NCBI GenBank assembly: GCA_041660885.1
Contig: JBAZVM010000004.1
Coordinates: 22,423 to 86,422 of the forward strand
DNA: 64,000 bases
Direction of reading: 5' to 3'
From: Patescibacteria group bacterium
Lineage (GTDB): Bacteria > Patescibacteriota > Patescibacteriia > UBA9570 > JAHJKD01
Position numbers and translations under genes: made by a program. The number at the start of each line of letters is the position of its first letter. Position 1 is the first letter of the stretch. Shown piece after piece: positions 6,535-53,243 of this stretch. A model generated the notes under the pieces. That model was not told the origin of the DNA and did not search any database. It worked only from the letters and a program-made list of their open reading frames with translations.

Positions 6535-6537
6535 TTA

Positions 6538-11967: not shown

Positions 11968-12002
11968 ATTATAGCAGAAAGAAAATAATAAAAAAAGATA
12001 GG

Positions 12003-12040
12003 AAAAAAAACAAATATAAAGCCCGGAATTAATTCCGGGC
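12003..12040 (-). terminator. intrinsic terminator of orphan transcription unit
   Basis: Perfect palindrome GCCCGGAATTAATTCCGGGC (12021-12040). On the minus strand it is followed by TTTATATTTGTTTTTTTT. Confidence 0.7.
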
Positions 12041-12427
12041 TAAAAGTTGTGAAGTTTGAAAGAGGGGCGCAAACGCCCCACTTCTTATTAAAAAGAATGT
12101 GATAATAGCGTAGCGCCCCAAACCCTTAAGCTAACCTTGTATTCGCCTCTTTTTTCAAAGAGGAAAACGCAAAGGATTTCCACTTAAGAGCAAGGTGCTC
12201 TTATTGTACATACCAGGAGTCGTACATATCCCCATAAGCGTAGCGGGGTTTCTCTACCATACCGCTGTCCCTCAGCTCTTCCGCAAGGGAAGAATAATCG
12301 AGGGCTCGCGAAACTTTTATTTTTGTTTTTTTCCTGGAATTTTGCACAGCAGAGAAAAATCTGTTTTCAATATGGCTTATTAAAAACAATTTTCTCGCCG
12401 CTCTTTTTCAATGTACTTTAGTGTACA
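12041..12427 (-). other. orphan transcript: structured GC-rich RNA and/or micro-ORF
   Basis: Bounded by a consensus promoter and a terminator. It contains several GC hairpins (GGGGCG-CAAA-CGCCCC at 12064-12079, CCTCTTT-TTTC-AAAGAGG at 12146-12163). The track ORF 12201..12389 starts with TTG. The only SD-led ATG gives MVEKPRYAYGDMYDSWYVQ (19 aa). Confidence 0.4.
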
Positions 12428-20002: not shown

Positions 20003-20040
20003 AAATAAAAATTGTTAATAATTAAAAGAAGAAAAAATTG

Positions 20041-20125
20041 TGGGGATGGAGAGATTTGAACTCTCACAACCTTGCGGTTACTAGCTCCTGAAGCTAGCGC
20101 GTCTACCAAATTCCGCCACATCCCC
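20041..20125 (-). tRNA. tRNA-Leu (anticodon CAG)
   Basis: Hand fold: acceptor GGGGATG/CATCCCC, anticodon arm CTAGC-TTCAGGA-GCTAG, a 15-nt variable arm, and T-arm GAGAG-TTCAAAT-CTCTC. No CCA encoded. Confidence 0.9.
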
Positions 20126-24317: not shown

Positions 24318-24360
24318 AATGGCAAAATGCGCGCCATATTTTTTTATTATTGGTAAGGCT

Positions 24361-24411
24361 GAGAAAGGGCAGCGAAGCATTTGTGTTTTGCTCCGCCGCC
24401 CTCTCTCTTCC
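24361..24411 (-). other. long imperfect 3' stem-loop after GC-rich ORF A
   Basis: GAGAAAGGGCAGCGAAGCA-TTTGTGTTT-TGCTCCGCCGCCCTCTCTC lies directly downstream of the stop at 24413. There is no U-tract. Confidence 0.5.
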
Positions 24412-24412
24412 C

Positions 24413-24853
24413 CTACTTCCTTAGCCAGATCTCCCCTTCGATAAATCGGGGGGAGCCCGACTGGACCCACGTAACCTTGTACGTAGTTTCGCAATCAAGG
24501 GGTCGAGACCCCAAGATCCGAATCCACAGTACAAGGGTGCCGGGATCAGCGGGAAGCCAGGTGTATTTTTCAACAACCTGTTCTTCTTCGCCAACCCACA
24601 CTCGTGGGTTAAAAAAGTAGGGCGCCAACCCAAACATGACAACCATCTTATGGCCCCAATCGCTGAGGGGCAGGTTGATTGTCAGGGTTGACGTTTCCCC
24701 GTTCCATCTCGCCTGCTCGACGCAAGCGAAGAGTGCATGGTGCAGAGCGCGAAGCTCTCCACCAACACTCTCGCCCACGGAAGGCGGATGGTCAGGGGAA
24801 GCCTTATCATCCCGAGCCGAAGATCGGGAGGGGAAAGGTAGAGCTCTCCCCAT
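24413..24853 (-). CDS. GC-rich hypothetical protein A (up to 146 aa)
   Basis: Hand GC count is 38/60 for nt 24721-24780, against 22/60 for nt 25021-25080. The SD-like AGGGGGTG precedes the ATG at 24853. The C-terminal half looks protein-like (KYTWLPADPGTLVLWIRILGSRPLDCETTYKVTWV). All six frames are fairly open here, so coding is unproven. Confidence 0.45.
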   Translation of the reverse strand: MGRALPFPSRSSARDDKASPDHPPSVGESVGGELRALHHALFACVEQARWNGETSTLTINLPLSDWGHKMVVMFGLAPYFFNPRVWVGEEEQVVEKYTWLPADPGTLVLWIRILGSRPLDCETTYKVTWVQSGSPRFIEGEIWLRK

Positions 24854-25033
24854 TTGGCACCCCCTGTTTCGGGGTTGAATGCGGCGTAATTGCCGACCGC
24901 ATAATGTATAACATTATTTTGATTTTGTCAATAGATATATGGAGATTTATAGCGTTTTTATTGACTTTTTTGAAAAAATATGATAAACTTATAATAGTTC
25001 AAATAATTTTTTAATCATTAAATTACTAAAAAT

Positions 25034-25696: not shown

Positions 25697-25724
25697 AAAC
25701 CCCGCCTCGGCGGGGTTTATTTGT
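25697..25724. terminator. terminator between convergent genes
   Basis: ACCCCGCC-TC-GGCGGGGT followed by TTATTTGTTT. It overlaps the stop codon of kinase 1. Confidence 0.75.
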
Positions 25725-27723
25725 TTGCCGGGGGTTGTTCACCTAATTCTGTTGAAGCTTCTTTCTTTTGTTGCATCTTTCTTAATTCTCTAGCTCTTTT
25801 CCTTGCAGGATCTAAAAATGATTTAATAATATGATTCAAACCACCGGCTACCTGCATAATATCCGGCCTTGCATGTTGGGGGCCTATCATACTCTGGAAT
25901 AATATCTTTAATTGTCTTTTTGCCTCTGCTTCTTCTTTGGCGTCTTCTGTTTCTTGAGTATTTATTTCTATCTCTCCGGTGTTTTCAAGTACAGTATTAT
26001 GGCTCACCACCCACTCTGCATCTTCAGTATTATCAGGATCTAAAGTTATCGCTCCTCGGTTATGAAAGTCATCCAAGCCGAAAAACATGGCATACAAAGT
26101 AACTCCCAAAGAATAAATATCTTGTTTTTTATTATCGATTGCTTCCTGCGGCCTTAACTGTTTTTCAAACGGTAAAAATTTATTTATTTTTTCAGGAGAA
26201 GCATACCTTGGAGTAAAAGCTGCGCTTTCACTATCACTTTCACTTAAAGCATGCCCTTGCATCAATTCGGACGTATTAAAATCAAAAAAAGTAACTGCTA
26301 TTTGCGGATTTTCTAATCCGGGATATTTTCTCGCCGGATCAACCATAATATTTGCAGGTTTAATATCTAAATGAGCGAACCCCCGCTGGTGTATCCTAGC
26401 CAGCGCTATGGAGATTTTCCGCGCTATCAATAATTTTTGACTCAACTTTCTGGGAGTTTTTTCTCGCATTATACCAAACAAACTTTTAATCTTATCTTCT
26501 TCTCTCCTGTTTTCATTTTCGGCGACTATATTCTCCATTAATTCAAAAACTTGCGTAAATTTCGGCTTACCTTCTTGATTCTGAACAACCTGCGAGCCAT
26601 AAGTAAGGGGCATGGCTCTATCCGCGCTGCGCGTCTGCCCTTTTTTAGCCATAAAATAATCTTTTAAAACCTGCGGGTGCACTTTATGTTCGTATTCTCT
26701 GATTACTAAAGATAAAAGTTGTTCATCCTGCGCTTCCGCGGCTTTATCAAGATATCGCAAAATAATCGTATCCAACGGTTGGCCCACTTCTTTTATTCTA
26801 TCTTCGGTTCTTTTGAGTATTGCTTGTCTTTCTGTATCATGAGGCGCATAATTTTCCAATAACGTTCCCTGGCTTAGTATATCTTGGATAAATATTTCCT
26901 GATAAGTGCCAGCGATTATTGTTTTATTTCTATCAGAATCTCCTTCAGCGCTCGTAATCTTTAAAGCGTATTGGTTTCCTTCCGCATCACTAACCGCCCA
27001 CACTTCGGCTATTCCACCTTTACCAATGGGTTCAAGCAGTGTTATCTTTTTCCCCTGAACGATAAGAGATAAATTAGGTTCCGGAACATATGGTTGCTCC
27101 CGATGTTCACTACTGGATTCTTTTCGCCTGACAAACTGTTCAAAAGTTTTTTTTGGCGATACAATATTCCTTTCTTTTTCCCTGGCGGTCCTTTCCACAT
27201 AAAAACTGCTTGGCGGCGGAACAAAGCCCGTTGGTTCTTCGTCTCTTTGCGCTATTCTTTGCTGCAAATCAATCACATTGCCCTTCAGTTCTTCTTCCGC
27301 AGCCAATCTTTCGATGTTTCGATCGAGCGAGCGAATCTCTGTCGGCTCTCCTGTTTCAGTTTCAGCAGGAAGTATCTGAGTATCCAGTTCTTCGTTCGTA
27401 ATTTCTTTTCGCGCTATTCTTTCCTGCAAATCAATCACATTGTCTCGCGCTTTATCCGGCGCAACTTCTTCTGCTTGTTCCGGTTTTGTTTCGTTTAATA
27501 TTTCTTCTTCTTCTTTTTCTACAAGTCTAAAAAATTCCAATAATCTTCTTACCCCAAATTTTTTGGCTATTTGCCAGGCTTTTTCTTTTATCCCCGCCCA
27601 TCTTTCGTTTATTTCCAATCTTTCTTGTTCAGATATTGGTTGTTTACTCTCTTCAATTTCAACATCTTCAGCCTGAACTCTTCGCCCATTTCGTTTTCGT
27701 TCTACATCTGGATGAATTGCCAT
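25717..27723 (-). CDS. Hanks-type Ser/Thr protein kinase 1 (non-RD, large N-lobe insert)
   Basis: G-loop IGKGGIAEVW, YALKI (beta3 Lys), hinge ELMEN, catalytic loop HLDIKPAN, DFN in place of DFG, FTPRYASPE and DIYSLGVTLY. Confidence 0.85.
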   Translation of the reverse strand: MAIHPDVERKRNGRRVQAEDVEIEESKQPISEQERLEINERWAGIKEKAWQIAKKFGVRRLLEFFRLVEKEEEEILNETKPEQAEEVAPDKARDNVIDLQERIARKEITNEELDTQILPAETETGEPTEIRSLDRNIERLAAEEELKGNVIDLQQRIAQRDEEPTGFVPPPSSFYVERTAREKERNIVSPKKTFEQFVRRKESSSEHREQPYVPEPNLSLIVQGKKITLLEPIGKGGIAEVWAVSDAEGNQYALKITSAEGDSDRNKTIIAGTYQEIFIQDILSQGTLLENYAPHDTERQAILKRTEDRIKEVGQPLDTIILRYLDKAAEAQDEQLLSLVIREYEHKVHPQVLKDYFMAKKGQTRSADRAMPLTYGSQVVQNQEGKPKFTQVFELMENIVAENENRREEDKIKSLFGIMREKTPRKLSQKLLIARKISIALARIHQRGFAHLDIKPANIMVDPARKYPGLENPQIAVTFFDFNTSELMQGHALSESDSESAAFTPRYASPEKINKFLPFEKQLRPQEAIDNKKQDIYSLGVTLYAMFFGLDDFHNRGAITLDPDNTEDAEWVVSHNTVLENTGEIEINTQETEDAKEEAEAKRQLKILFQSMIGPQHARPDIMQVAGGLNHIIKSFLDPARKRARELRKMQQKKEASTELGEQPPANK

Positions 27724-27740: not shown

Positions 27741-29966
27741 TTATTGTTCTTGGGCTCTTTGTCTTCTTGCTTCTTCACTTTGTTGTTGTGACTCTTGTCT
27801 TTTTCGGGATTCTTCATTTTGTGCTTCTCTTGCAGCTATTTGTTCAGATCTATAAGGTGCATAAATAGCATAAAATTCGCGAGCTACATCGTCGATATTC
27901 GGACGCGATTCTACCGGACCGATCATTCTGGCAATTAAAACGGCTATTTTTCCTTCTGGTGACGATGGATCAACTTCCAATGCTTTCGGCTCACATTTTC
28001 TTTTTAATATTGAACCATGTTCAACTATATATTTTTTTACTTGTTCAATTGAAACTTGCGCTATTTTCGAATCAGTTCCTTTTCTTTGTTCTTGAGGCTT
28101 CTTTCCACTGCTATCGTAGAGATTATCACTACCGAAAAAAAGTCTGTACATTGTTATTCCTAAAGAATAAATATCGCGCTTTAAAAAGTCATCCTCACTT
28201 ATGTCTTTTTTAGCATCTTGGGCAAGAGCTTCCGGCGGCATATATCGGAAAGTACCGGTATTATAGTTTCGATCCTCCGGCAATAATAATTGGAATGTTT
28301 CGGCAAGGCCGGTATCTAATATCCTGGCATCCATGTTCTTTGGGTCAACCATCACATTAGCCGGTTTGATGTCGCGATGAGCAATGTGCCGCTGATGGAT
28401 TCTTCTTAAACCTAGCATCATTCCCATAGTTGCTCGCAGTCTCTGTTCTAAATTCAAATGATCTTCTATCTCTTCCAAATTCTGTATTTTTTCATTTTTC
28501 TCTCTATCCTTATTTTCCGCTGATACGTTTTCCATAAGCATAGCTATCTGAGTAACTCTCACTTCTGTTCCTAGTGTATATGATTTTAGCTGCTCTTTTA
28601 TTGCATTTATTATTTCCTTGCTATATAAAACCTTTTTAATCGGATCTTTTTCTTTATCTGCTTCGATAACTCCGGATGCTACTTTGCTAGACAGATCATT
28701 TATACTATTTAAATAATCACGAAAAACTTCTTTTGTTAAACTGCGCGGATTAATGCCTTCTCTGCTTAATGCTTTATATACTTGAGTGGCGACCGTTTTA
28801 GCTATAATAGCATCATTTTTCTCTGAACTGCGCGATTCCGTTACTCGCTGAATACCGGTTAATTCATCATAATAATCCCAAACAAAATTAATACCTTCAT
28901 TGGAAACAGCGTTAATATCCGATTTGATTATCTGGCTTTCATGAGCTTCTGGCACTCCTGTTACTTTTCTAGTTCTTCCGCTTTCAGCATCAGCATATCG
29001 ACGCACTAAAACTCTCGTATGAGGGTATTTTGCTTCGTGCGCTTGTAAAATTCTTTCTTTTTCCGTTTCATCTTCGCATTCTAACAATTTCAAAACCGTG
29101 CTTTCTGTGTCTGCTAAAGCTTTTTCGGAATATTCCGGATGGCTCTCGGCTATCTTTTCTCTTAAACTGCTGATTATCCCTCTTCGTTCTGTTTCATTAA
29201 AAATTTGGCCGCTAGATAAATAACTATTAATCATAGATTCGCGGCCTACTCTTACATATTCGCTTCTTCTGCGTAAATCTTCCTCTAGATTGCCTTTAAA
29301 CTCAACTAATTTTACGGCAAAAATTTGGCCAGATTTATCTCTGACTGAAAAGACGCTCCCAAAGCCGCCGCTTCCCAACAGACCAATTACTTCATAATTA
29401 TTACCGGCTATGGCAATACTTGATCCCGGTTCCATTATTACAGGGCCAGCATCCTCTCCTCTGATTTCTTTATGCGACTCTAAATTACGCATGTAATCTT
29501 GCAGAGGTTTTTCTATTCTTTCGCTACTTAATCTTATTTCTGAACTAGTATCCGTATACTGATCTTGTTTTGTTATTTCTTCGGCGTTTGGTTCATTGTC
29601 TGCCGCTTCTATTTCTCTTACAGTTGTCTCTAAATCTTCATCGGTTTCCTCTTCATTTAAACCGCCTGGCAGCACTTGTAAATCCGGCTGATCTGGCGCT
29701 TGTGCATCTTCGAGTACTTTATCTTCTGCTTGTTCTACTTTGAGCACTTCATCTTCTGCTTGTTCTACCAGACCGAAAAACTCCATTAATTTATTATACC
29801 CTAAAGCAGCAATTTTTCTTGCTTTCTCCATGATGCGCGCCCAGCGCTTATTTACTTCTTTTTTTTCTTGCTCGGAAATTGGCTGGCCCGCTTCTTCAAT
29901 TACAACACCTTCAGCAGGTACCCTGGGGCGAGCTGATTGTCTTTTTAAATCTGGATTTTGAGGCAT
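27741..29966 (-). CDS. Hanks-type Ser/Thr protein kinase 2 (very large N-lobe insert)
   Basis: G-loop LGSGGFGSVF, FAVKL, hinge MLMEN, HRDIKPAN, DTG in place of DFG, GTFRYMPPE and DIYSLGITMY. Confidence 0.9.
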   Translation of the reverse strand: MPQNPDLKRQSARPRVPAEGVVIEEAGQPISEQEKKEVNKRWARIMEKARKIAALGYNKLMEFFGLVEQAEDEVLKVEQAEDKVLEDAQAPDQPDLQVLPGGLNEEETDEDLETTVREIEAADNEPNAEEITKQDQYTDTSSEIRLSSERIEKPLQDYMRNLESHKEIRGEDAGPVIMEPGSSIAIAGNNYEVIGLLGSGGFGSVFSVRDKSGQIFAVKLVEFKGNLEEDLRRRSEYVRVGRESMINSYLSSGQIFNETERRGIISSLREKIAESHPEYSEKALADTESTVLKLLECEDETEKERILQAHEAKYPHTRVLVRRYADAESGRTRKVTGVPEAHESQIIKSDINAVSNEGINFVWDYYDELTGIQRVTESRSSEKNDAIIAKTVATQVYKALSREGINPRSLTKEVFRDYLNSINDLSSKVASGVIEADKEKDPIKKVLYSKEIINAIKEQLKSYTLGTEVRVTQIAMLMENVSAENKDREKNEKIQNLEEIEDHLNLEQRLRATMGMMLGLRRIHQRHIAHRDIKPANVMVDPKNMDARILDTGLAETFQLLLPEDRNYNTGTFRYMPPEALAQDAKKDISEDDFLKRDIYSLGITMYRLFFGSDNLYDSSGKKPQEQRKGTDSKIAQVSIEQVKKYIVEHGSILKRKCEPKALEVDPSSPEGKIAVLIARMIGPVESRPNIDDVAREFYAIYAPYRSEQIAAREAQNEESRKRQESQQQSEEARRQRAQEQ

Positions 29967-30044
29967 ATTGATTTTCTATAATTTTTTTTATTTTAACATT
30001 TTTTTTCTTAAAAAACAATAATATTGAAGATGATAATTTATGGA

Positions 30045-30118
30045 AGGCGGGAGAGAGAGGTGCCAACCCAGACTTTCGTCTACGACGCTTGCGCGCCGTC
30101 TCTCTCCTTAAGCCGCCC
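30045..30118 (-). other. long imperfect 3' stem-loop after GC-rich ORF B
   Basis: GGCGGGAGAGAGAGG (30047-30061) pairs with CCGTCTCTCTCC..GCCGCC (30096-30118). It overlaps the ORF B stop and lies between ORF B and the start of kinase 2. Confidence 0.5.
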
Positions 30119-30584
30119 TGAACGGGACGGGTCCGCAGTTTTCCCCGAGGGGAACCTTCCCGCTCGCGCGGAAATATTGCGAACCTGCCCACTGCAGAGT
30201 GAAACTCCTCTCGGCGTCAGAGCCCGTTTCCACGGAGGAAAAGATCGGCTCTGCAGAGCAGAAACCGAACCCAATCCATCCATCAACGGACTCGAGGATC
30301 TGTATGTTTTCCTCGCGGAATTCATAAGACCCTAACCGACCAATCAGATCTGGGAACGCAACAGACCGAACGTCCCTGACCCAAATGATCAGACAATAAG
30401 CCGAGAAAAACTCGATTTCCACCCTTGGGAGGGCTTCCTTCGAGCTGGAGTCTTCACCCCGAGCCCTTTCTTCGCTGGCGCTTGCCCAACGCTCAGCGAG
30501 AAAAACCACATTGCTGTGGCAGGGCTCCGCGGGGGCGGCCTTCTTTTCCTTCCGGCTCCGAAGGAGCCAATCGAACCAACACAT
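30108..30584 (-). CDS. GC-rich hypothetical protein B (158 aa)
   Basis: Strong SD: GGAGGGAG, then CC, then ATG (30594-30582). Hand GC count is 40/60 for nt 30481-30540. The sequence looks protein-like (VEIEFFSAYCLIIWVRDVRSVAFPDLIGRLGSYEF), whereas the other frames give R/P/S-rich junk. Confidence 0.5.
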   Translation of the reverse strand: MCWFDWLLRSRKEKKAAPAEPCHSNVVFLAERWASASEERARGEDSSSKEALPRVEIEFFSAYCLIIWVRDVRSVAFPDLIGRLGSYEFREENIQILESVDGWIGFGFCSAEPIFSSVETGSDAERSFTLQWAGSQYFRASGKVPLGENCGPVPFRAA

Positions 30585-30602
30585 GGCTCCCTCCAGGAGT
30601 TA

Positions 30603-30655
30603 GAAAAAATTGAAAACCAACCCCCTCGCGGGGGCGATTGACCCGTGTGGGCCAA
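30603..30655 (-). promoter_or_regulatory. leader with two hairpins, the second terminator-like (candidate attenuator)
   Basis: Minus-strand RNA: TTGGCCC-ACAC-GGGTCAA, then GCCCCC-GCGA-GGGGGT, followed by TGGTTTTCAATTTTTTC about 10 nt before the SD of ORF B. Confidence 0.45.
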
Positions 30656-30767
30656 CGAATGACCCTAACACATTAGTTTTAAAAAGTCAAGCTAATTATA
30701 TAGAATATCCCCTATTTTATTGATTTTTTAGCAATTTTATGCGAGAATTATATTGAATTTAAATAAT

Positions 30768-32294
30768 ATGCCTCAAGAAAGACAATTAGATAAAAAATTA
30801 TTAAGTGAAAAACATGTTAAACCGGAAGATTTAGATATTACAGAAGCTACAGATGATGAAATAGCACCTAAAGAAGAAGCCGGTAAAGTTCTTGAATTTA
30901 GGCGTGCGGCTGAAAGGGCAGAAGCGGAAGCGGCGCATCAAGCCGATGCTTTAAGCGCGGAAATTTCGCAAAGCATGGAAGTGCCCGGAGAGCCCTGGCT
31001 TGATCAATATCAAGATCCTCATCTTAGAAGATACGCCCATGAAAAATATACTCGGCTGATGCAACAGATTGCGGAATTAAAGCCGAAGCACGATAGCAAA
31101 GGTTTTTTACGCCGCCTATGGGAACGAACCACGGGAGCATACCAAGCCGAAGAAAGCCGGCTTGAGCAAATGAACCAAGCGCTGGCTGAGATATTAGAAG
31201 GAAGATTGGAAACATTAGTGAGAGCTGAGCAGAGCGGTCAAGCTAGATACACGAAAAAACAAGAAAGCACCGTAGATAGATTTGGACAACCGTTAGAAGC
31301 ATACGGGGAAGATGTCGTGTCTATAGATGAAATAGCCGGTACTGCTATTATTATTGATGGCATGTCTGGCATGAAAAAGGGAGGAATTGATAAATCTACT
31401 GCCGCTTTGATGGAAGCGGCTGGAACAAAACAAGAAATAACTGACGATTCATTGCCCATAGCAAAAGAAATCGCTTCGCGCTTAAACCGAGCTTTGCAAG
31501 AAATACCATCCGATATTTCAGGAGACCAAGCAGTGGCCGAATTAACGAAGAGCTTTAAAAATGTATTAAACAATATAGAGCTTGAAGTTACCGGTGGAGC
31601 CATGATTTTAGCTGTGAAATATTTGCCAGATACTGATGAATTATTAATCATAGATATTGGTAACTGCCAGTTAGCGCTTCAAGGCGTGGATAAATTTAGC
31701 GATATAAAATTAGACAGGGGTGGTATTTCTGCTTTCCAAACTTTTTACGACAAAAAAAATAAAAAAATTGGCATTTATGATAATAGACCGAATAATAAAA
31801 AAACTCCTTATATTTATTCTGTCCCTTTAGCGAATTTTAGAACTGACTCTAGCCAACCGATTACTTTATTTATGGGTTCAGACGGGTTGAATGAAACGAA
31901 TTCTCATATGACCCGAATACATGATTTAGAACAACAAGTGCAGCGTACTATAGAATTAATAGAAAAAGATGAGGCGCATATCACGGAGTTCCGAGAAAAA
32001 ATGAACGCCACTAACGACCCAAAAATAAGGGAGGGTATTTCCAAGCAAATAATGCGCAAGGAATTACGTTTAAGCGGCCGTCAAAAAACATTGGCCGTCC
32101 TACAAAGTAATTTAGAAGCTGGGGCCGGAAGAGAAAATCATTTTGGCAGTGCAAAAAACTTAACGGAATGTGCTCCTGTTTTACTAGAACGTGGCACAAG
32201 CGCTATTTCTGCTTTACCAAATACTGTGGATGATATATCTATAATACGCTTGGATATTCCGCCAAAAAAAGAAACGAGGGAATTAACTCATTAA
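30768..32294 (+). CDS. PP2C-family Ser/Thr phosphatase with ~190-aa N-terminal coiled-coil extension
   Basis: IIDGMSGMKKGG (DGMGG-like), LFMGSDGLNE (SDGL) and VDDISIIRLDI (DN/DI-T/S-vv) motifs. Start set at ATG 30768; the track uses TTG 30753. Confidence 0.8.
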   Translation: MPQERQLDKKLLSEKHVKPEDLDITEATDDEIAPKEEAGKVLEFRRAAERAEAEAAHQADALSAEISQSMEVPGEPWLDQYQDPHLRRYAHEKYTRLMQQIAELKPKHDSKGFLRRLWERTTGAYQAEESRLEQMNQALAEILEGRLETLVRAEQSGQARYTKKQESTVDRFGQPLEAYGEDVVSIDEIAGTAIIIDGMSGMKKGGIDKSTAALMEAAGTKQEITDDSLPIAKEIASRLNRALQEIPSDISGDQAVAELTKSFKNVLNNIELEVTGGAMILAVKYLPDTDELLIIDIGNCQLALQGVDKFSDIKLDRGGISAFQTFYDKKNKKIGIYDNRPNNKKTPYIYSVPLANFRTDSSQPITLFMGSDGLNETNSHMTRIHDLEQQVQRTIELIEKDEAHITEFREKMNATNDPKIREGISKQIMRKELRLSGRQKTLAVLQSNLEAGAGRENHFGSAKNLTECAPVLLERGTSAISALPNTVDDISIIRLDIPPKKETRELTH

Positions 32295-32374: not shown

Positions 32375-32941
32375 ATGGACAATAAAAATATAGATTGGGA
32401 CGACATATATAGAGACCCGCAAATACGCGCCGTGGCGCAAAGCCGCTATGCCGAGCTTAATAAAGAACGCGAAGATTTAGGCGCGCAGATGAAAGAAATA
32501 GAAGAAGAGATGAGAACCTGGCAAAAAGCCTGGAAAAATATTTTAGAGCGCCGGCTGATTATGGAACAAAAAATTCGCGCCAAAGATAAAATGATTCGCC
32601 ATGTTTTTCCCGTACAGCCGCCAGCCATAACAACCAACCAGCAACCAGTCATAAAAAATCAACAACTATTTTCCAACACGGAAAAATTTATCGTAAAAAA
32701 CGAACAAAAAAAAACCGTCAGCCAGCAGCCGATAGCTCCTAGCCAACCTTCCGCTAATGTAAATTTAAAGCCCGTTCCCAAAGTAGGAAGCAACACCGCG
32801 TTGGATGAATTAAAAGCCGCCAAGCTGGAAGAAGCCAGTTTAAGGCAAAGCCCCACGGCCACGGCCTTGGATATTGCCACGCTTCAAGAAAAAATTAAAT
32901 CTCTCACACAAAAATTAAACACGCAGACTTCTACGGTGTAG
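32375..32941 (+). CDS. hypothetical protein (188 aa) sharing an N-terminal motif with the PP2C
   Basis: WDDIYRDPQIRAVAQSRYAEL compares with WLDQYQDPHLRRYAHEKYTRL in the phosphatase. Q/P/T-rich C-terminal half. Confidence 0.6.
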   Translation: MDNKNIDWDDIYRDPQIRAVAQSRYAELNKEREDLGAQMKEIEEEMRTWQKAWKNILERRLIMEQKIRAKDKMIRHVFPVQPPAITTNQQPVIKNQQLFSNTEKFIVKNEQKKTVSQQPIAPSQPSANVNLKPVPKVGSNTALDELKAAKLEEASLRQSPTATALDIATLQEKIKSLTQKLNTQTSTV

Positions 32942-38024: not shown

Positions 38025-38096
38025 CGCGGGGTAGAGCAGTGGCAGCTCGGCTGGCTCATAACCAGCAGGTCGGTGGTTCGACTCCACCCCCCGCAA
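38025..38096 (+). tRNA. initiator tRNA-fMet (anticodon CAT)
   Basis: The 5' end is CGCGGGG and the 3' end CCCCGCA-A, giving the C1xA72 mismatch typical of bacterial initiators. Anticodon loop CTCATAA, T-arm GGTGG-TTCGACT-CCACC. No CCA encoded. Confidence 0.9.
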
Positions 38097-38101
38097 CATT
38101 C

Positions 38102-38128: not shown

Positions 38129-38157
38129 AACTTAATTATTTAAACGAATAATTTTTT

Positions 38158-38198
38158 GGCGGCGGGAACTGAGTGTGATGTGTCACTCTCCCGCGCCC
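38158..38198 (-). other. 3' stem-loop after GC-rich ORF 38202..38483
   Basis: GGCGGCGGGAACTGAGTG-TGATGTGT-CACTCTCCCGCGCCC (imperfect), directly after the TAG stop. Confidence 0.5.
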
Positions 38199-38201
38199 TC
38201 C

Positions 38202-38483
38202 CTACTTCTTCCTCCTCCTCTTCCACGCGATCTCAACCCTCTGGAGGGTCAAGAGGAGCCCTCCGAGCTCGGTGTCCCTTTCATCTCGTCTGTCGATCAG
38301 ATGTTGATAGATTTCCGTCCAGTTGAAGTTCCCGAACTGATCCTTGCCCGGGAGGAACTCCGGATCGATCTGTCCGACAGCGGCATAGGCCGCGTCGAAC
38401 AGCTCCTCCAGTTCGGGCAGCGCCAGCCGCGCAATTACACTAGACTCGATGCCAATAATCTGTGGGATCGTGAACGCCATCAT
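38202..38483 (-). CDS. GC-rich small hypothetical protein (93 aa)
   Basis: SD-like AAAGGGGTGAT precedes ATGATG (38483). Hand GC count is 39/60 for nt 38341-38400. Sequence MMAFTIPQIIGIESS...WKRRRKK. No family recognised. Confidence 0.55.
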   Translation of the reverse strand: MMAFTIPQIIGIESSVIARLALPELEELFDAAYAAVGQIDPEFLPGKDQFGNFNWTEIYQHLIDRRDERDTELGGLLLTLQRVEIAWKRRRKK

Positions 38484-38590
38484 ATCACCCCTTTGGTTAG
38501 ATGGTTGATAAAATATAACCATAATAATAAAAATGCCGCAAGTTTATAATTGCGGACATTCATATTAAAAGTAATAAATTTTGAACTGCT

Positions 38591-38624
38591 GCCGGGATCG
38601 TAGTTGTGATGCTACTTACCCGGC
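38591..38624 (-). other. 3' stem-loop after GC-rich ORF 38639..38836
   Basis: GCCGGGATCGTAG-TTGTGATG-CTACTTACCCGGC. The loop shares TGTGATG with the 38158-38198 hairpin. Confidence 0.5.
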
Positions 38625-38638
38625 TCCCCCTTGATGTT

Positions 38639-38836
38639 CTACCCCTCGTACCACTCGGACTCACTGTATGGGACAAGGCTGGCACTCATGCCGAGATGGT
38701 CGACAAGCTCCCTTTTTTCCCTCGCAGTCATGTCGCGCCACTCCTCCAGACCGCCAGCCATTTCCTCGAGATACTCCTGGTCTATGAGATCATCGGCGAC
38801 CAGTTCCTCGTCCGAGTAATTTCTCGTTCTTTGCAC
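38639..38836 (-). CDS. GC-rich small acidic hypothetical protein (65 aa)
   Basis: GGAGGTGA, then GCC, then GTG start (38847-38834). Acidic sequence ending PYSESEWYEG. Confidence 0.55.
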   Translation of the reverse strand: MQRTRNYSDEELVADDLIDQEYLEEMAGGLEEWRDMTAREKRELVDHLGMSASLVPYSESEWYEG

Positions 38837-38900
38837 GGCTCACCTCCTATTGTATGGAGCGCCGCGGGTATAAACTACTATTTATATGCAATCTGGTCAA

Positions 38901-43715: not shown

Positions 43716-44022
43716 AGTAGAAGAAAAATTTGATGCGAAAGATGTGGAAGAAAACAAAGCGATTGCTTGTTTAAGCTACATCGGTATCTTATTTTTAATT
43801 CCGTTGCTCGCGAAAAAAGAATCTAAATTTTGCCAAGCCAACGCTAAACAAGGCATGGCTCTATTCATATGCGAGGTGATATTAGCTATTATCCCTTACT
43901 TAGGTTGGTTAGCAGAATTGGCTTTAATCGTGGTAGCTATCATCTGCATTATCAATACCCTTCAGGGCAAATTATGGCAGATTCCGGGATTATATAATCT
44001 ATCCAAAAAGTGGAATTTTTAA
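43702..44022 (+). CDS. small membrane protein (DUF4870-like pattern)
   Basis: AAAGGAGGTGA SD before ATG 43702. KAIACLSYIGILFLIPLL followed by a second TM segment. Confidence 0.6.
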   Translation: MAENKVEEKFDAKDVEENKAIACLSYIGILFLIPLLAKKESKFCQANAKQGMALFICEVILAIIPYLGWLAELALIVVAIICIINTLQGKLWQIPGLYNLSKKWNF

Positions 44023-44038
44023 AAACACGGATATATAA

Positions 44039-44068
44039 CAAAAACCCCGCCGATGGCGGGGTTTTTTA
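44039..44068. terminator. bidirectional terminator
   Basis: A-run, CCCCGCC-GAT-GGCGGGG, then a T-run, between the convergent membrane-protein gene and recA. Confidence 0.8.
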
Positions 44069-44080
44069 TTTGTGTGTGAG

Positions 44081-45091
44081 TTATTTGCTCTTTTCTACGG
44101 CGACCATGACGTCTTTTCTTATTTCTTTTATCAATTTCGGATTTTCCTTTAAAAAGGCTTTGGCGTTTTCTCGACCCACGCCCAATTTATTTTCTTTATA
44201 GGCATAGGTGTTTCCGGTTTTGGTAATTACGCCGAATTGCACGCCGGTATCCAGTATGTCCCCGGTTACGGAAATTCCTTCGTTGTACATGATATCGAAT
44301 TCGGTTAGGCGGAAAGGAGCGGCCACTTTATTTTTAACAATTTTTGCTTTTACGCGGTTGCCAATAATGCGATCTCCCTGCTTAATTTGGGCCGCACGGC
44401 GCACTTCTATTCTCACGGAGGAATAAAATTTCAAAGCCGTGCCTCCGGTGGTTGTTTCCGGATTGCCGAACACTATTCCGATTTTCATTCTGATCTGATT
44501 GATGAAAATAATGACCGTGCGCGATTTGGAAACAATGCCCGCGAGCTTTCTTAAAGCTTGGCTCATGAGCCTGGCTTGCAAGCCCATGTGCGAATCTCCC
44601 ATATCTCCTTCTATTTCCGCTTTAGGCGTTAGAGCAGCCACGGAATCGACAACGATTACATCCACCCCGTTAGAGCGCACCAAAGTTTCCACGATTTCTA
44701 AGGCTTGCTCGCCCGTATCCGGCTGAGAAATAAGCATATCATTGATATTCACGCCGATCCTCTTGGCGTATTCCGGATCAAGCGCGTGTTCCGCGTCTAC
44801 GAAAGCGGCTGTGCCGCCGGCTTTCTGCACTTCCGCCACAATGTGCTGGGATAAAGTGGTTTTGCCCGAGGCTTCCGGACCGTATATTTCAATAATGCGG
44901 CCTCGCGGTACGCCGCCGACGCCTAAGGCTATGTCTAGCGACAAACAACCGGTAGAAACCGATTCCACATTCATTTGCTTGGCCTCGCCCAGACGCATAA
45001 TAGCGCCATCGCCAAAGCGTTCTTTGATCTGCTCTATGGCAGTGATAGCCGCTTTATTTCTGCTATCTTTTTCTTCTGATTTTTTTGTCAT
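44081..45091 (-). CDS. recA: recombinase RecA
   Basis: Walker [11 protein letters not shown] and [10 protein letters not shown]. Confidence 0.98.
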
Positions 45092-45099
45092 AATTTTTT

Positions 45100-45768
45100 T
45101 TATTGATTAGTTTCCACTAAAATTTGCTTATAAATTATTCTTTCTTTGCTATGCGTTTTCTTGGCTACTATTTTTATGGTGTTCAACCCCGTGCGCAGAG
45201 AAATAGTTTCTTCAAAATTGCCTTCTTTATCCGTAAGAATGACCTGGCCATTGATAAATACTTGGGTATCGGCTTCGGTTTGGCCGGCAATGGTGATAGC
45301 ATGCTCCTTAGTGGTTAATTGATCAGGCAAGTTATTGACGATTAGATCGGGAGGCTGAACAAAATTGCCCACTTCATAAATTAAATACGAGCTTAAAGCC
45401 ACCAGCCCAAAAATAATCAAAAGAGCAACTAGCAATTTAGGAATGACCAAAGCTTTTTGGTTGTACTTGGTAGCGGGTTTGGCCGGATGCTTTTCTTTAT
45501 AAATTACCATTTCCCTGGCCAGCAGACGCTCCATAGTAAACCAATTCAAGCGCAAGAATTGGGAGTATTTTTTTAAATAATTTTTAATGAACAAAGGGCT
45601 GGGCAATTGATTATACTGCCCATTTTCTAAAAAACCAAGATATTCCTTATTTATTTGTATTTTTTTTGCGACTTGTTCCAAAGATAATCCGCTATCTTTT
45701 CTGGCGCGCTTTAATTTATCGCCCAGAGTGCGGTTGCTTAGTATCTGCTTGCTGCTGAATTCGGACAT
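45100..45768 (-). CDS. HTH (XRE-type) membrane protein, RodZ-like
   Basis: N-terminal HTH ([25 protein letters not shown]), a central TM segment and a C-terminal beta domain. Confidence 0.7.
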
Positions 45769-45772
45769 AAGC

Positions 45773-48022
45773 TTAAGCTTTTGGTTGTTCTATCTCTTCT
45801 TCCGGCTCTTCTTCTTTTTCTTCGGCTTCCGCAGCTTCCGCTGGGGCTTGCTCCTCTTCTTCTTTTTCCGATTCTTCCGGCGTTTCATCAGCTGCTCCGG
45901 AAACCAATATTTCGCGCGGCTTGGCGCCATCAGCCGGGCCGATAAATCCTTGTTCTTCCAATATATCTAAAATCCTCGCAGCTCTGGCATAACCAACGCG
46001 CAAACGGCGTTGCAACAAAGAAGCGGAAGCTTTTTTCGCTTGCAAAATTATCTGTTTGGCTTCTTCCAATAATTCATCTTCTGCTTCACCGTCTTGATAA
46101 ACATAAGATGAATTGGCGTGAGCCGGCTTTTCCGTTACTTCCTCGGTATATTCCGGTTTGGCTTTGTTCTTCAAATAACCAACGACTCGGCTTATTTCTT
46201 CTTCCGTCAGGAAAGCACCCTGTAAACGCTTGGGCTTAGCCAAGCTCGCGGATATGTAAAGCATATCTCCCTTGCCAAGCAACTTTTCCGCGCCAGAATG
46301 ATCTAATATGGTGCGAGAATCTATCAAGGATGCCACATTAAATGCCACGCGGGAAGTAATATTCGCCTTGATAAGGCCGGTGATGACATCCACGCTGGGC
46401 CTTTGCGTGGCCAACACCAAATGGATACCCACGGCGCGAGCCATTTGCGCCAAACGGGTAATGGCCGCTTCCACTTCGCGTGCGGAGACGGACATAAGAT
46501 CGGCTAATTCATCAATCACCAATACGATATAAGGCATTTCTCCGCCATTTTTAATGTAATCATGGATATTGCGCTTGCCGGATTGAGAAAGCAGCTCGTA
46601 TCTTCTATCCATTTCATTGACTATCCATTTTAAAGCGTTAATGGTTTTGGTAACATCGGTAATAACCGGTGTTAGCAAATGAGGTATGCCATTATATAAA
46701 GTGAACTCCACTCTTTTCGGATCCACTAAAATTAATTTGAGGTCATCCGGACCATTTTGAAACAGCAAACTCATGATGATAGTGTTGATGCATACGGATT
46801 TTCCCGAACCAGTAGCGCCGGCAATAAGCAAATGGGGCATGGTATCTAAATCGGCTTGATAAGATTTTCCAGCTACGTCTCTGCCTAAACATAAAGTTAA
46901 ATTGTTTTTTCTTTTTTTAAATTCCGGCATCTTGAATATTTCCTTCAAACCAACCATAGCCACGGATTCGTTCGGCACTTCAATGCCAACCAAAGACTTT
47001 CCCGGAATGGGCGCTTCTATTCTTATGGGATGCGCGGCCAAGGCTAAGGAAAGGTCGTTAGAAAGAGTGGTGATCTGGGCCAGCTTCACGCCTTCGGAAG
47101 GCTTAAGCGTATATTGCGTGACTGTAGGGCCGACGCTGACATCTCCCAAGGTGGTTTCTATGCCGAAACTCGCCAAAGTATGGTGGATTACCTCTTTATT
47201 CTTATTGATATCGCCGCTGGTGGGCTTTTCATTTTTGTTGTTTAGAAGCTCCAAAGGAATGGCAATATGGCGATGCTGGCGTTTAGGAGGAACGAGTTCC
47301 ATTTGTTTGGGTTTTCCGCTCTCTTCCGTACCGTTATCGGCTATTTCGCGTTGATTAAACGAAGGATTTTCCTCTCCTTCTTCATTTACTTCCTCATATT
47401 CTTCATATTCACTTTTTTCTCGAATGCTGGAAATGCCATCTTTGGCGCGGCCGAATAAATGTAAAATAAATTGGCCGATTTTTCCCAAAAAGCTGGTAGC
47501 GGGAAATTTGTTAAGCATGGCGGCTAAAGAAGTGTTAAACATGAGCAGCAAAGAAGTAACGCCTAAAGCGATAATAACTACCCAAGCCACCCAGACCGAA
47601 GAAATTTTTAACAATGGATAACTTAAAACCATGCCTAAACGGCCTCCGGCGGATTGATCACCGTCTAAAGAATTAAGGAAAGCCAGAAAACTTAAAGTGA
47701 ATAAACCAATACCTAAATAATTGGCAATGGTAATACGGTACTTTTCCGGATAAATTAACAAATAACCAATAATTATAAGAAACACGGGTAAAATATATTT
47801 GCCATAGCCAAAAACATACATCAGTACGCTATCCAGTTTATTGCCAATCTGCCCGGCGAGATCAAACATGGAAAGGAGGGATATGGCAGCCAAAGCGAAG
47901 AGCACGACAATCACAATGCCCTTTTGCGTTTCCGCGGGCATGGATTTTGATTTCCTGCTTTTCTTTGGTTCTTCTTCCAATTCTTCCTCTATTTTCTTGT
48001 TTTTTGCTTTCTTTTTTGACAT
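45773..48022 (-). CDS. ftsK: DNA translocase FtsK/SpoIIIE
   Basis: N-terminal TM segments, Walker A AGATGSGKSV, and a C-terminal winged-helix gamma domain (LLQRRLRVGYARAARILD). Confidence 0.95.
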   Translation of the reverse strand: MSKKKAKNKKIEEELEEEPKKSRKSKSMPAETQKGIVIVVLFALAAISLLSMFDLAGQIGNKLDSVLMYVFGYGKYILPVFLIIIGYLLIYPEKYRITIANYLGIGLFTLSFLAFLNSLDGDQSAGGRLGMVLSYPLLKISSVWVAWVVIIALGVTSLLLMFNTSLAAMLNKFPATSFLGKIGQFILHLFGRAKDGISSIREKSEYEEYEEVNEEGEENPSFNQREIADNGTEESGKPKQMELVPPKRQHRHIAIPLELLNNKNEKPTSGDINKNKEVIHHTLASFGIETTLGDVSVGPTVTQYTLKPSEGVKLAQITTLSNDLSLALAAHPIRIEAPIPGKSLVGIEVPNESVAMVGLKEIFKMPEFKKRKNNLTLCLGRDVAGKSYQADLDTMPHLLIAGATGSGKSVCINTIIMSLLFQNGPDDLKLILVDPKRVEFTLYNGIPHLLTPVITDVTKTINALKWIVNEMDRRYELLSQSGKRNIHDYIKNGGEMPYIVLVIDELADLMSVSAREVEAAITRLAQMARAVGIHLVLATQRPSVDVITGLIKANITSRVAFNVASLIDSRTILDHSGAEKLLGKGDMLYISASLAKPKRLQGAFLTEEEISRVVGYLKNKAKPEYTEEVTEKPAHANSSYVYQDGEAEDELLEEAKQIILQAKKASASLLQRRLRVGYARAARILDILEEQGFIGPADGAKPREILVSGAADETPEESEKEEEEQAPAEAAEAEEKEEEPEEEIEQPKA

Positions 48023-48046
48023 GATAATGCTAATTAATGCCTAATT

Positions 48047-48075
48047 ATAATAGCATATTTTCCTTAAATTTTCAA
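48047..48075 (-). promoter_or_regulatory. putative ftsK-rodZ-recA promoter
   Basis: On the minus strand: TTGAAA (48075-48070), 17 nt spacer, TATTAT (48052-48047). Confidence 0.55.
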
Positions 48076-48090
48076 AGAGCTTTTTTTACA

Positions 48091-48114
48091 ACAAAAAAGG
48101 GCTTCTCGCCCTTT
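48091..48114 (-). terminator. terminator ending the pur/gua operon
   Basis: AAGGGC-TTCTC-GCCCTT, with TTTTTTGT on the minus strand. Confidence 0.6.
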
Positions 48115-48170
48115 CTGTTTATAATTTTAGACTACTATTATTGTATTGTCAAAATTTAGAATTAGGTTAT

Positions 48171-49379
48171 TTAGCTACCTGCATTCGGTTCCATCATGCC
48201 GAATTGCTTAACAAACATTTTTTTTGCGTTTTCCACTACAGCGATTAATCCTTTATATAATACTCTGGTATTATCCGGATTATGATATTTCGTTAAATAA
48301 TTTTCATTAGTAGCTTTATCTGTTTCAATCAACCAGCCATAGACTTGTTGAACGTTGTTTTCTCCAAAAAAACGTTGGGCAAAGTGCTCCTGAAAACGGC
48401 TAATAGCATAAGAACGCTGTTCAGCAGGTAGGTCGTGATTTATTCTCTCTACGAAATCTTGAAAATCAGTGCTAAATGATTGGGTAAAGTCATCCACTAA
48501 TTCGGAATAATTATCCAAAGTCGTTTCTCGATTATTCATTCGGTTGATAAAACCGATCAAATCCGTAAATAAACGAATACTGGCATAATTAATAATAATG
48601 TCAGCTTGTTCTTCCGGAGAAAACTGTCTTGTTTTTTCCCAAATATTAAAATTATGAGAGCTCCCTTGGCTGTAATTAAGCAGACCGCCCGCGTCTCCTA
48701 CTTTTAAAGAGTCTAAACCAATATTTCCTTTTAACAATCTAAATCCGCAATCTTCTAAACTTCTCACGCCTGCCGGATGATTTATAAAATTTTGTGCTCT
48801 ATTTTCCGGAGCGTCAATTATATATAATCCAGATTCTTTTAATTTTTTCAAAACTTCCGGATTAGGTTCAGTAGAAATAAAATTAGTATATATTGCGTCT
48901 AAATCCTCTGGAACGGACTCATTTTGCTGAGCCGGTTCAGCTATCCATTCAATAGCTGATCCGTCCGTTAATTCAGTATGCAATCCCTTTTCTCTGTCCT
49001 CGTGCGTGATATCAGAACTTTTTCTTAAAAATGACGATTCCAATCTTTGTCTGAGATTGTTTTGTCCATTAACCTCTTCATGGTAAATAGGATCAACAAA
49101 AGAATGTTTTGTTCCTTCCGGAGAAATTAGCAACGGCACAACATCATAGCCGGAAGCCGGGTAGTACCATTTTTGATTCTTTCCCCTTCTTTCAAAAGCG
49201 GTTCTTAAAGTATAAATTAAATTTTTATCCTTATCCGACATACCATCCAGAACATGATCAAATTGCCTCACCTTTTTTTCAGGTTCAGGTGGTGGTGGCA
49301 TTTCTATTTTTACCCAAGATGGTCTTGGCCCATTTACTCCAGATTCTCCCATGTAATTAAAATATTTAATTATTCCCAC
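48171..49379 (-). CDS. hypothetical protein (402 aa; possibly 393 aa from ATG 49352)
   Basis: ORF only, the last gene of the purine operon. It overlaps the guaA 3' end by 10 nt if the start is 49379. The WYYPASGYDVVPLL segment is unassigned. Confidence 0.55.
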   Translation of the reverse strand: MGIIKYFNYMGESGVNGPRPSWVKIEMPPPPEPEKKVRQFDHVLDGMSDKDKNLIYTLRTAFERRGKNQKWYYPASGYDVVPLLISPEGTKHSFVDPIYHEEVNGQNNLRQRLESSFLRKSSDITHEDREKGLHTELTDGSAIEWIAEPAQQNESVPEDLDAIYTNFISTEPNPEVLKKLKESGLYIIDAPENRAQNFINHPAGVRSLEDCGFRLLKGNIGLDSLKVGDAGGLLNYSQGSSHNFNIWEKTRQFSPEEQADIIINYASIRLFTDLIGFINRMNNRETTLDNYSELVDDFTQSFSTDFQDFVERINHDLPAEQRSYAISRFQEHFAQRFFGENNVQQVYGWLIETDKATNENYLTKYHNPDNTRVLYKGLIAVVENAKKMFVKQFGMMEPNAGS

Positions 49380-51160: not shown

Positions 51161-51163
51161 AAA

Positions 51164-52666: not shown

Positions 52667-52667
52667 A

Positions 52668-53243
52668 TTATTTTTTATATTCTTTTAAAGCTTCTACTAT
52701 TATTTCTTGCTCAGCCGCCTGCACTTTGGCTTTTAATCTATCAGGCGTTTCGCCTTTAACTATGGCAACTTTTTTTTGCTTGATAATCGGTCCGCTATCG
52801 GGAATCTCCGTGACATAATGCAAAGTACAGCCGCTTTCGGTTTCATGATTCTTTAAAACTTCTTCATGCACGTTTAAATCCATGCCTCCGGCGTATTTCG
52901 GCAATAGCGAAGGATGAATATTCATCATGCGGTTCTCGTATTTTTTTACAAAAGGCTTGGATAAAATTCTCATCCAGCCTAATAACAAAATTAAATCAAT
53001 CTTATACTCATCAAGTATAGCCATTAATTTTTTATCATACTCTTCCCTGTCCTTTATCCCCTTGGAAGGCAGGGCTCTGGTTTCAATCTCGGCAATTTCC
53101 GCCCTTTCTAAAATAAAAGCTTCAGGCTTATTGGAAATCACTACTTTTAAATTTATATTGGGAAGCTCCCCAGCTTTAATGGCATCTATCACGGCTTGCA
53201 GATCCGAACCTTTGGTTGATCCCAATACGGCAAGATTAACCAT
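52668..53243 (-). CDS. purN: phosphoribosylglycinamide formyltransferase
   Basis: NIHPSLLPKYAGG and the ...SGCTLHYV... motif. Confidence 0.9.
   Translation of the reverse strand: MVNLAVLGSTKGSDLQAVIDAIKAGELPNINLKVVISNKPEAFILERAEIAEIETRALPSKGIKDREEYDKKLMAILDEYKIDLILLLGWMRILSKPFVKKYENRMMNIHPSLLPKYAGGMDLNVHEEVLKNHETESGCTLHYVTEIPDSGPIIKQKKVAIVKGETPDRLKAKVQAAEQEIIVEALKEYKK

Follow-up and report, generated by a model that had tools for sequence, protein, structure and literature searches.

A fast-evolving small-protein gene on a predicted hyper-structured mRNA in a Patescibacteria group bacterium

ORF B is a GC-rich open reading frame (ORF) on the minus strand of a 64,000-nucleotide (nt) stretch of contig JBAZVM010000004.1 from a Patescibacteria group bacterium (assembly GCA_041660885.1, positions 22,423 to 86,422 of the forward strand), hereafter called the window, in which it precedes two tandem Ser/Thr kinase genes. 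As judged by comparison with an orthologue, ORF B is a genuine coding sequence, and neither the protein sequence nor the codon content accounts for how strongly its coding region is predicted to fold. Bacterial mRNA coding regions are normally only weakly structured; the ORF B mRNA is predicted to be folded about as tightly as the genome of an RNA virus, which is unusual for a bacterial gene. The explanation we tentatively favour, to which we give somewhat less than an even chance, is that ORF B is a self-contained gene for a small protein, carried on a hyper-structured mRNA that is long-lived and held to a low level of translation. Three homologous sequences were available for the analysis: the ORF B unit itself (B), the orthologous locus on contig L012 of a related uncultured bacterium (B2) and a paralogous unit in the window (A).

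Coding status of ORF B

An exhaustive HMMER search of 1.84 billion representatives returned a sole homologue of ORF B, its 165-residue orthologue P0004 (E 5.8e-6; pairwise E 8e-15). The B2 ORF has 165 codons, and its Shine-Dalgarno sequence (SD) and ATG are identical to those of ORF B. In a codon-unaware MAFFT alignment of B with B2, the gaps inside the ORF are 6, 3, 36 and 9 nt long, and an adjacent pair of 1 nt and 2 nt near the C-terminus sums to 3. The first 36 codons are conserved at the nucleotide level in all frames; when they are removed, the ORF body scores 85 in the ORF frame compared with 33 and 40 in the other in-phase frames, and residue shuffles score 27 ± 4.8, giving a z of 11.9 for the ORF-frame similarity. 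Identity at codon positions 1, 2 and 3 is.45,.59 and.39, respectively, and different codons are used at 14 of the 33 conserved residues. Dinucleotide shuffles seldom produce an ATG-initiated ORF of this length (P 0.0125 for B, 0.0055 for A). By these comparisons the ORF B protein is under detectable purifying selection. The initial annotation of the window had proposed ORF B as a gene of 158 aa, and the open frame preserved in the orthologue bears this out. An early idea of ours, that the unit is an ornate non-coding RNA (ncRNA) with a fortuitous ORF, was dropped for B once the orthologue showed frame-preserving insertions and deletions together with frame-specific similarity.

Searches with the ORF B protein found no match other than itself among 5.8 billion proteins, no variants in 90% clusters, and no Pfam, PADLOC or PDB sequence match. 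AlphaFold2 (AF2), run on the single sequence, gave an all-β model with a pLDDT of 61 and a pTM of 0.58. A Foldseek comparison of this model with the PDB returned nothing at E ≤ 0.001 and only generic β-sandwiches at TM 0.36–0.43. ORF B was also found on three other contigs, each 100% identical to the window, and these therefore provide no population variation.

The B2 locus is syntenic and carries UvrC, the orphans p170, p136 and p487, the ORF and then a truncated downstream gene. Between the two species, protein identity is 80% for UvrC, 61% for p188/p170, 42% for p508/p487 and 30% for ORF B, and nucleotide identity between B and B2 is 83% in the promoter and leader, 86% in the 3' element and 53% in the ORF body. 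On these values the ORF B protein is fast-evolving, and the leader and 3' junction are far better conserved.

Structure of the coding region

The ORF B unit spans ~620 nt (30656-30043, minus strand) and has a GC content of 56%, compared with ~39% for the genome; positions 30045-30660 form a GC island at 52–60%, and the B2 locus likewise lies at 53–60%. Fold z-scores for full units were obtained by comparing the minimum free energy (MFE) with that of dinucleotide shuffles, and coding regions were also compared with synonymous-codon shuffles in which the protein and the codon counts are kept. The minus-strand fold of B has a z of −12.2 (671 nt) or −10.2 (626 nt), and the corresponding values are −9.7 for B2 and −12.5 for A. 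The plus strand of B gives a z of −4.6, with six G·U pairs compared with 36 in the minus-strand fold, and in A the minus strand has 22 G·U pairs compared with seven on the plus strand. The G·U-rich fold of the minus strand and the weaker fold of the plus strand indicate that the structure is strand-specific and exists at the level of the RNA. When the comparison is made with synonymous-codon shuffles, z is −6.9 for B, −8.6 for B2 and −8.4 for A, while three control genes lie between −0.8 and −1.9; synonymous shuffling raises the MFE by 45–55 kcal/mol. We take this as a sign that selection acts on pairing as well as on the protein. What is conserved in the coding body is the amount of pairing and not one defined fold. 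The 36-nt in-frame insertion in B2 (L012 ~4277-4312; alignment columns 334-369) is a perfect UUCG-capped hairpin, which suggests that hairpin modules may join the coding region without a break of the frame.

Promoter and leader of the ORF B unit

Every feature named in the initial annotation was found at the position given for it. The ORF B unit and the spacer that follows it contain the following features, all on the minus strand.

30662-30690, minus strand: putative promoter of the ORF B unit, read from the sequence, with −35 TTGACT (30690-30685), a 17-nt spacer ending TGT and −10 TAGGGT (30667-30662)
30637-30656, minus strand: P1, 5'-terminal hairpin GUUGGCCC-ACAC-GGGUCAAU, in the MFE fold of the 54-nt leader of B and B2
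30603-30635, minus strand: P2, terminator-like hairpin GCCCCC-GCGA-GGGGGU (30635-30620) with an interrupted U tract (30619-30603), from a terminator scan
30527-30631, minus strand: alternative long hairpin, an MFE prediction in which the G-run and U tract of P2 pair with codons ~9–19
30108-30584, minus strand: ORF B, 158 codons, GC 56.6%, encoding an orphan, predicted β-rich protein
30050-30107, minus strand: 3' four-way junction, with an 8-bp base helix GGAGAGAG/CUCUCUCC and three tetraloop hairpins at 30099-30082 (GCAA loop), 30081-30070 (GAAA loop) and 30069-30058 (UGGC loop)
30043-30048, minus strand: 3' strand GCCUUC of P5, a proposed long-range 5'-3' helix whose partner is GAAGGC at 30543-30538
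29990-30018, minus strand: promoter-like site before kinase 2, TTGTTT-17 (ending TGT)-TAAAAT, read from the sequence

The promoter is near-identical in B2 and aligns without gaps to the TTGACA-17-TACATT of paralogue A, and we infer that transcription starts near it. P1 is the hairpin TTGGCCC (30655-30649)-ACAC-GGGTCAA (30644-30638) of the initial annotation; it has 7 bp including one G·U, and its stem is invariant between B and B2 while its loop is altered (ACAC to AUGGU). The geometry of an intrinsic terminator had been ascribed to GCCCCC (30635-30630)-GCGA-GGGGGT (30625-30620) followed by TGGTTTTCAATTTTTTC (30619-30603), and an independent consensus scan also flags this segment as terminator-like; it joins a G+C-rich stem-loop directly to a U-rich tract and lies in the sense orientation, after the promoter and ahead of the start codon. 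Both hairpins form in the predicted fold of the 54-nt leader (z −3.05; 1 of 200 shuffles as good), and P1 and P2 do so in B and B2 alike. From the 3' arm of P1 through all of P2, loop included, to the first part of the U tract, B and B2 share a 31-nt block at 100% identity. The P1 stem, P2 and the U tract are all kept in B2, and the annotation passes the check that had been set for it, conservation of the hairpins in homologous loci. The ORF opens, as annotated, with GGAGGGAG (30594-30587), CC and the ATG (30584-30582).

Codons ~9–19 hold a second copy of CGCCCCCGCG at 30537-30528, which is the partner in the long hairpin, and once ~130 nt of leader is present this hairpin replaces P2 in the predictions. 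The 132-nt leader of B has an MFE of −69.3 kcal/mol (z −5.3), and the same fold is predicted for B2 (−65.8 kcal/mol, z −4.7). In the predictions for both loci the apical helix P3 (30593-30584/30569-30560) buries the SD (30594-30587) and the ATG. Forced folding was used to compare state 1, in which P2 and the 5'-3' helix P5 are formed, with state 2, in which the G-run is paired with the second C-run, and gave the following energies.

B: state 1, −300.6 kcal/mol; state 2, −307.1 kcal/mol
B2: state 1, −317.8 kcal/mol; state 2, −320.3 kcal/mol
A: state 1, −289.7 kcal/mol; state 2, −287.1 kcal/mol

The state energies are 2.5–6.5 kcal/mol apart in B, B2 and A, so the two leader states are near-isoenergetic, and P3 persists in both. 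No upstream antiterminator is present in the 54-nt leader fold; the sole competitor for the P2 G-run is the C-run 90 nt downstream. Riboswitch-like control, which had been suggested for this leader, finds no support: a cmscan search of 4227 Rfam families returned nothing at the gathering score and nothing credible when relaxed to E ≤ 10, just ~45 nt lie ahead of the U tract, and no domain resembling an aptamer is evident. Attenuation, suggested alongside it, is plausible but unproven, with the conserved terminator-like P2 and U tract in its favour and the lack of a classical upstream antiterminator against it.

3' four-way junction and closing helix

The stem-loop that had been noted after the stop codon is present at 30107-30050 and conserved, but it is predicted to fold as a four-way junction and not as a hairpin with an internal structured loop; its distance of ~80 nt upstream of the kinase 2 ATG (29966) is confirmed. 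The fold of the 3' element has a z of −3.3 (0 of 200 shuffles as good). All 23 of its 23 pairs are kept in B2, where five of the five changed pairs are compensatory, and no copy besides B and B2 turned up when 171 kb was searched with a covariance model of the junction. GNRA tetraloops, such as those of the junction, are typical tertiary-contact elements. Intercistronic stabilisers (REP/malEFG, puf operon hairpins) are similar in that a stable structure without a U tail stands between a cistron and the downstream genes; the 3' element differs from them in being a conserved four-way junction, unique in the 171 kb searched, rather than a simple hairpin or a repeated REP.

The equivalent of P5 in element A, UAAGGCU/AGCCUUA (24806-24800/24360-24354), is in the MFE fold of A. 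One pair in the P5 flank covaries between A and B (U-A compared with G-C), and GAAGG/CCUUC is kept in B2. In B and B2, a fold forced to contain both P2 and P5 is only 2.5–6.5 kcal/mol less stable than state 2. These models give moderate support to P5 as a 5'-3' closing helix. Both B and A end in a GA-repeat/CU-repeat helix that abuts the short 5'-3' closing helix.

Paralogous unit A

Element A lies 6 kb from B and contains the following features.

24354-24931, minus strand: element A, with the putative promoter TTGACA-17-TACATT at 24931-24903
24902-24879, 24875-24859, 24851-24830 and 24829-24810, minus strand: P1, P2, P3 and P4 of element A, respectively
24853-24413, minus strand: ORF A, 146 codons
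24407-24361, minus strand: terminal 19-bp hairpin at the 3' end of element A
24806-24800/24360-24354, minus strand: closing helix of element A

A can be aligned with B across the region of the bidirectional promoter and on through the 5' ~120 nt of the RNA (nhmmer E 1.8e-4). The two elements have in common the −35 TTGAC, aligned −10 hexamers, the C-run/G-run hairpin P2, a GGRGRGAGC motif and a UUCG hairpin, as well as AAGGC followed by a second C-run, so that the order is C-run 1, G-run, C-run 2. At the place equivalent to P1, element A has a hairpin of different sequence, and its P2 is CCCC-GAAACA-GGGG without a U tract. A canonical terminator (24309-24292) follows only after the closing helix, and no kinase gene follows. 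TCAATAAA, which is conserved upstream of A and B, is the reverse complement of the TTGAYT −35 of a divergent plus-strand promoter, and its presence upstream of both elements indicates that the A/B duplication took in the whole bidirectional promoter. The corresponding sites, read from the sequence and from a promoter scan, lie at 24961-24989 (plus strand) and ~30700-30745 (plus strand).

No protein similarity was found between ORF A and either ORF B or the B/B2 profile, and ORF A has no match other than itself among the 5.8 billion proteins. Its AF2 model is poor (pLDDT 48.6, pTM 0.38). By analogy with ORF B, ORF A is probably coding.

Relation to the kinase genes

Kinases 1 and 2 (25717-27723 and 27741-29966, minus strand) are tandem paralogues of ~28–30% identity that lie 17 nt apart. 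They share an N-terminal region, and kinase 2 has no match other than itself among the 5.8 billion proteins. The kinase domains match the PADLOC defence-kinase models mad6, PD-T4-6 and MkoA, which probably reflects the shared kinase fold only. Neither the sequence nor a terminator scan gives a terminator between ORF B and kinase 2, so that transcripts could read through into the kinases. The spacer before kinase 2 is AT-rich and well conserved, and its promoter-like site reads TGTTAAACT in B2; this site probably drives the kinases, besides any read-through. For the control of the kinases that had been suggested as a possible role of the leader, read-through could provide a route, but the spacer has its own promoter-like site and paralogue A is kinase-free with a terminator of its own. 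In L012 the contig ends within the downstream gene, which has only a weak likeness to the N-terminus of kinase 2 (E 0.12). With no sign of a riboswitch, no upstream antiterminator, a promoter-like site in the spacer and a kinase-free element A, the unit looks autonomous and not like a dedicated kinase leader.

Searches for further members and surroundings of the unit

JGI metagenomes, viral contigs and GTDB genomes were searched and gave no further members of the unit. In a metagenome scan, a 24-mer taken from the leader block that is identical in B and B2 found the source organism and nothing else, and DNA patterns built from the positions conserved between A and B, which would also have missed the true orthologue B2, gave zero or chance-level matches in viral contigs. 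A UvrD-guided scan of genome contigs came no closer than relatives with 44% identity (Bdellovibrionales and other metagenome-assembled genomes (MAGs)) and found no related element. The sequence beyond the window ends, in which a giant gene (>3984 aa) and the end of the contig were reached, contains no other element of this kind. ARAGORN and Rfam detect only tRNA-Leu (20040-20125) and tRNA-Met (38025-38097) as tRNA or tmRNA genes, and the ORF B unit is not among them.

Two other GC-rich (~56%) small ORFs with good SDs lie at 38150-38850 on the minus strand, directly downstream of tRNA-Met and its terminator; they fold ordinarily (z about −2) and look like a small foreign segment integrated at the tRNA gene. 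A coarse 240-nt scan, which is noisy at eight shuffles per window, gave z-scores of −6 to −10 at 57121-57360 (plus strand), 12001-12240 (both strands) and 6481-6960 (plus strand). The segment at 12001-12240 contains terminator-like hairpins and lies in a 1-kb region without an ORF of at least 150 aa. None of the three segments resembles element A or B.

The divergent gene at 30768-32294 (plus strand) had been labelled PP2C, a label not upheld by Pfam, in which it has no match even at E ≤ 1. This orphan and the one at 32375-32941 (plus strand) are 42% and 61% identical to L012 2394-3857 and 1300-1812, respectively; between these two, L012 carries an additional gene of 136 aa with no counterpart in the window. 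A purine-biosynthesis cluster at ~44000-64000 (minus strand; L016) comprises purA, purC, purE, purB, purF, purD, purN and purH together with genes for fumarase and malic enzyme; one would not expect it in a genome that carries the NCBI name 'Patescibacteria group bacterium'. Among GTDB representatives, UvrD has its nearest relatives in Bdellovibrionales MAGs, at 44% identity only. The single gene of >3984 codons just outside the window start (L014 4322-14315) has no Pfam match on record.

Discussion

The explanation that we tentatively favour can be set out as a chain of proposed steps. Transcription from TTGACT-17-TAGGGT would give an RNA that begins with P1, which may act as a 5'-end stabiliser. 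P2 and its U tract would form a leaky terminator or attenuator that halts part of the transcripts ~50 nt in, while in the read-through RNA the P2 G-run could swap its upstream C-run for the identical C-run 90 nt downstream, producing a hairpin of ~100 nt. P3 would bury the SD and AUG in both states and so keep translation low. The 3' four-way junction may stack on the 5'-3' helix, where it would provide a cap, a shield against 3'-exonucleases and a boundary towards the kinase cistrons. The net outcome would be a very stable and poorly translated message that yields small, tightly gated amounts of an arms-race-type protein.

Several observations weigh against this explanation. The exact pairs of the coding body are weakly conserved, with 54–56% kept compared with 32–47% in slid controls, and the covariation statistics are thin because only the three sequences exist. 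The U tract after P2 is interrupted by GG (UUGGUUUUCAAUUUUUU) and is absent in paralogue A. Conservation of P2 at 100%, loop included, suggests sequence-specific recognition rather than a plain terminator. P5 is short, at 5–7 bp. AF2 confidence is moderate for ORF B and low for ORF A. Finally, the transcription start site, termination at P2, translation of ORF B and the half-life of the mRNA are all inferred from sequence and folding models.

Some alternatives give the RNA itself a function. A dual-function RNA, whose paired body is active as a dsRNA-rich scaffold, as a decoy or sponge, or as an activator or ligand of the kinases and whose ORF is secondary or co-opted, appears unlikely to us. 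Such an RNA would account for non-coding ends that are much better conserved than the protein, for a strength of structure that is kept in the orthologue and the paralogue although the A and B proteins are unrelated, for the self-contained UUCG hairpin gained in frame by B2, for the nucleotide-level conservation of the first 36 codons in all frames and for the GNRA tetraloops of the 3' junction. The poorly conserved body fold, however, argues against a defined three-dimensional RNA machine, and purifying selection on the protein, the lack of a kinase next to element A and the absence of a match to any known RNA family also speak against it. RNAIII (hld) of S. aureus and SgrS/SgrT offer a likeness, as multi-hairpin RNAs of ~500–600 nt that contain an ORF and whose non-coding parts are better conserved than the peptide, but in the ORF B unit the ORF passes through the hairpins and makes up ~75% of the RNA, neither loops for target pairing nor a regulon are known, and there is no Rfam match. 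A stronger form, in which the base-paired RNA body and not the protein is the primary product, so that the units would form a virus-genome-like family of coding RNAs with conserved ends and a freely evolving, helix-rich interior, seems unlikely. In its favour are ends that are conserved better than the protein, a degree of structure that is kept without a fixed fold, and hairpin modules that enter in frame. Under this alternative the RNA, rich in dsRNA, might serve as an effector or scaffold, perhaps one that binds or regulates the Ser/Thr kinases encoded next to it, or it might be packaged or exported by its own small β-sandwich protein. The genomes of ssRNA phages and viroid-like coding RNAs (Obelisks) resemble the ORF B unit in having a reading frame that passes through extensive selected structure and a small orphan protein, but the unit is at a chromosomal, syntenic locus with a sigma-70-type promoter and has neither a replicase nor a rod-like global fold.

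The model of the initial annotation, in which the operon of the two kinases is controlled jointly by a dedicated attenuator or riboswitch in the leader and by processing or attenuation at the 3' stem-loop, we regard as unlikely. It draws on the conserved terminator-like P2, on the missing terminator before kinase 2 and on the order of ORF and downstream gene, which is kept in L012; yet there is no detectable aptamer, the spacer contains a conserved promoter-like sequence, paralogue A has the same leader logic with its own terminator and no kinase, and the downstream gene of L012 is truncated and only weakly kinase 2-like. Intrinsic-terminator leaders likewise place a GC hairpin and a U-rich tract between promoter and SD, but here these occur without an upstream antiterminator, a leader peptide or an aptamer. 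That the unit is a purely non-coding RNA of the OLE/ROOL/GOLLD type, with ORF A and ORF B as chance frames in stop-poor GC-rich sequence, is quite improbable. The resemblance is real, since those RNAs are also ~600 nt long, form GC-rich islands in AT-rich genomes, have their own promoters and carry tetraloop-capped helices with extreme fold z-scores (here about −10 to −12), and the other frames of the unit hold several long ORFs, while ORF A and ORF B are mutually unrelated and match only themselves among the 5.8 billion proteins. For B this alternative is largely refuted by the orthologue, which keeps an ORF of similar length from the same ATG despite ~47% nucleotide divergence in the body, with gaps in multiples of three, frame-specific similarity and a coding-type codon-position pattern; in addition, no covariance model matches even at E ≤ 10 and the body fold is not conserved between the orthologues.

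A type I toxin-like (hok-like) module, in which an inert folded mRNA encodes a harmful protein and is activated by 3' processing, controlled by an antisense RNA, or both, is very unlikely in our estimation. Like hok/sok-type mRNAs, the ORF B mRNA is predicted to be a stable folded message with a buried SD and start codon, refoldable 5' hairpins and a possible 5'-3' fold-back beside a 3' structure, with a near-isoenergetic alternative to the 5'-3' helix, and two sites that resemble plus-strand promoters (30008-30037 and 29993-30022) are directed into the 3' element. An antisense promoter there seems doubtful, however, as such sites occur at chance frequency in this AT-rich spacer (17 found compared with 13.4 expected) and are poorly conserved in B2, where the −10 is, by eye, not kept. 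Moreover, the product has 158 aa and is predicted to be β-rich, whereas the hok-type product is a small, hydrophobic membrane peptide of <60 aa; there is no sign of a conserved antisense RNA or of an overlapping leader ORF, the structure spans the whole coding region and PADLOC gives no match. The least probable alternative, and a most improbable one, is that ORF B is simply a GC-rich gene gained by horizontal transfer, with an RNA structure that arose incidentally. Its GC content of 56% in a 39% genome and the other GC-rich small genes that adjoin tRNA-Met in the window fit such an origin, but synteny and high GC persist in a species at only 80% UvrC identity, synonymous shuffles remove 45–55 kcal/mol of folding energy and the genes next to tRNA-Met have a z of about −2.

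The ORF B locus has the look of an ornate ncRNA and yet is coding, a caution for ncRNA pipelines that rely on GC-rich intergenic islands and for gene callers alike. The gene is chromosomal and, in the face of strong mutational pressure towards AT, keeps both its ORF and virus-like pairing across two species and a paralogue. Should the structure serve stability or translational gating, it would be an extreme natural case of mRNA-level control and a template for long-lived designer mRNAs. If instead the RNA itself is functional, it would represent a new class of dual-function RNA beside eukaryote-type kinases in an uncultured and possibly host-dependent lineage.

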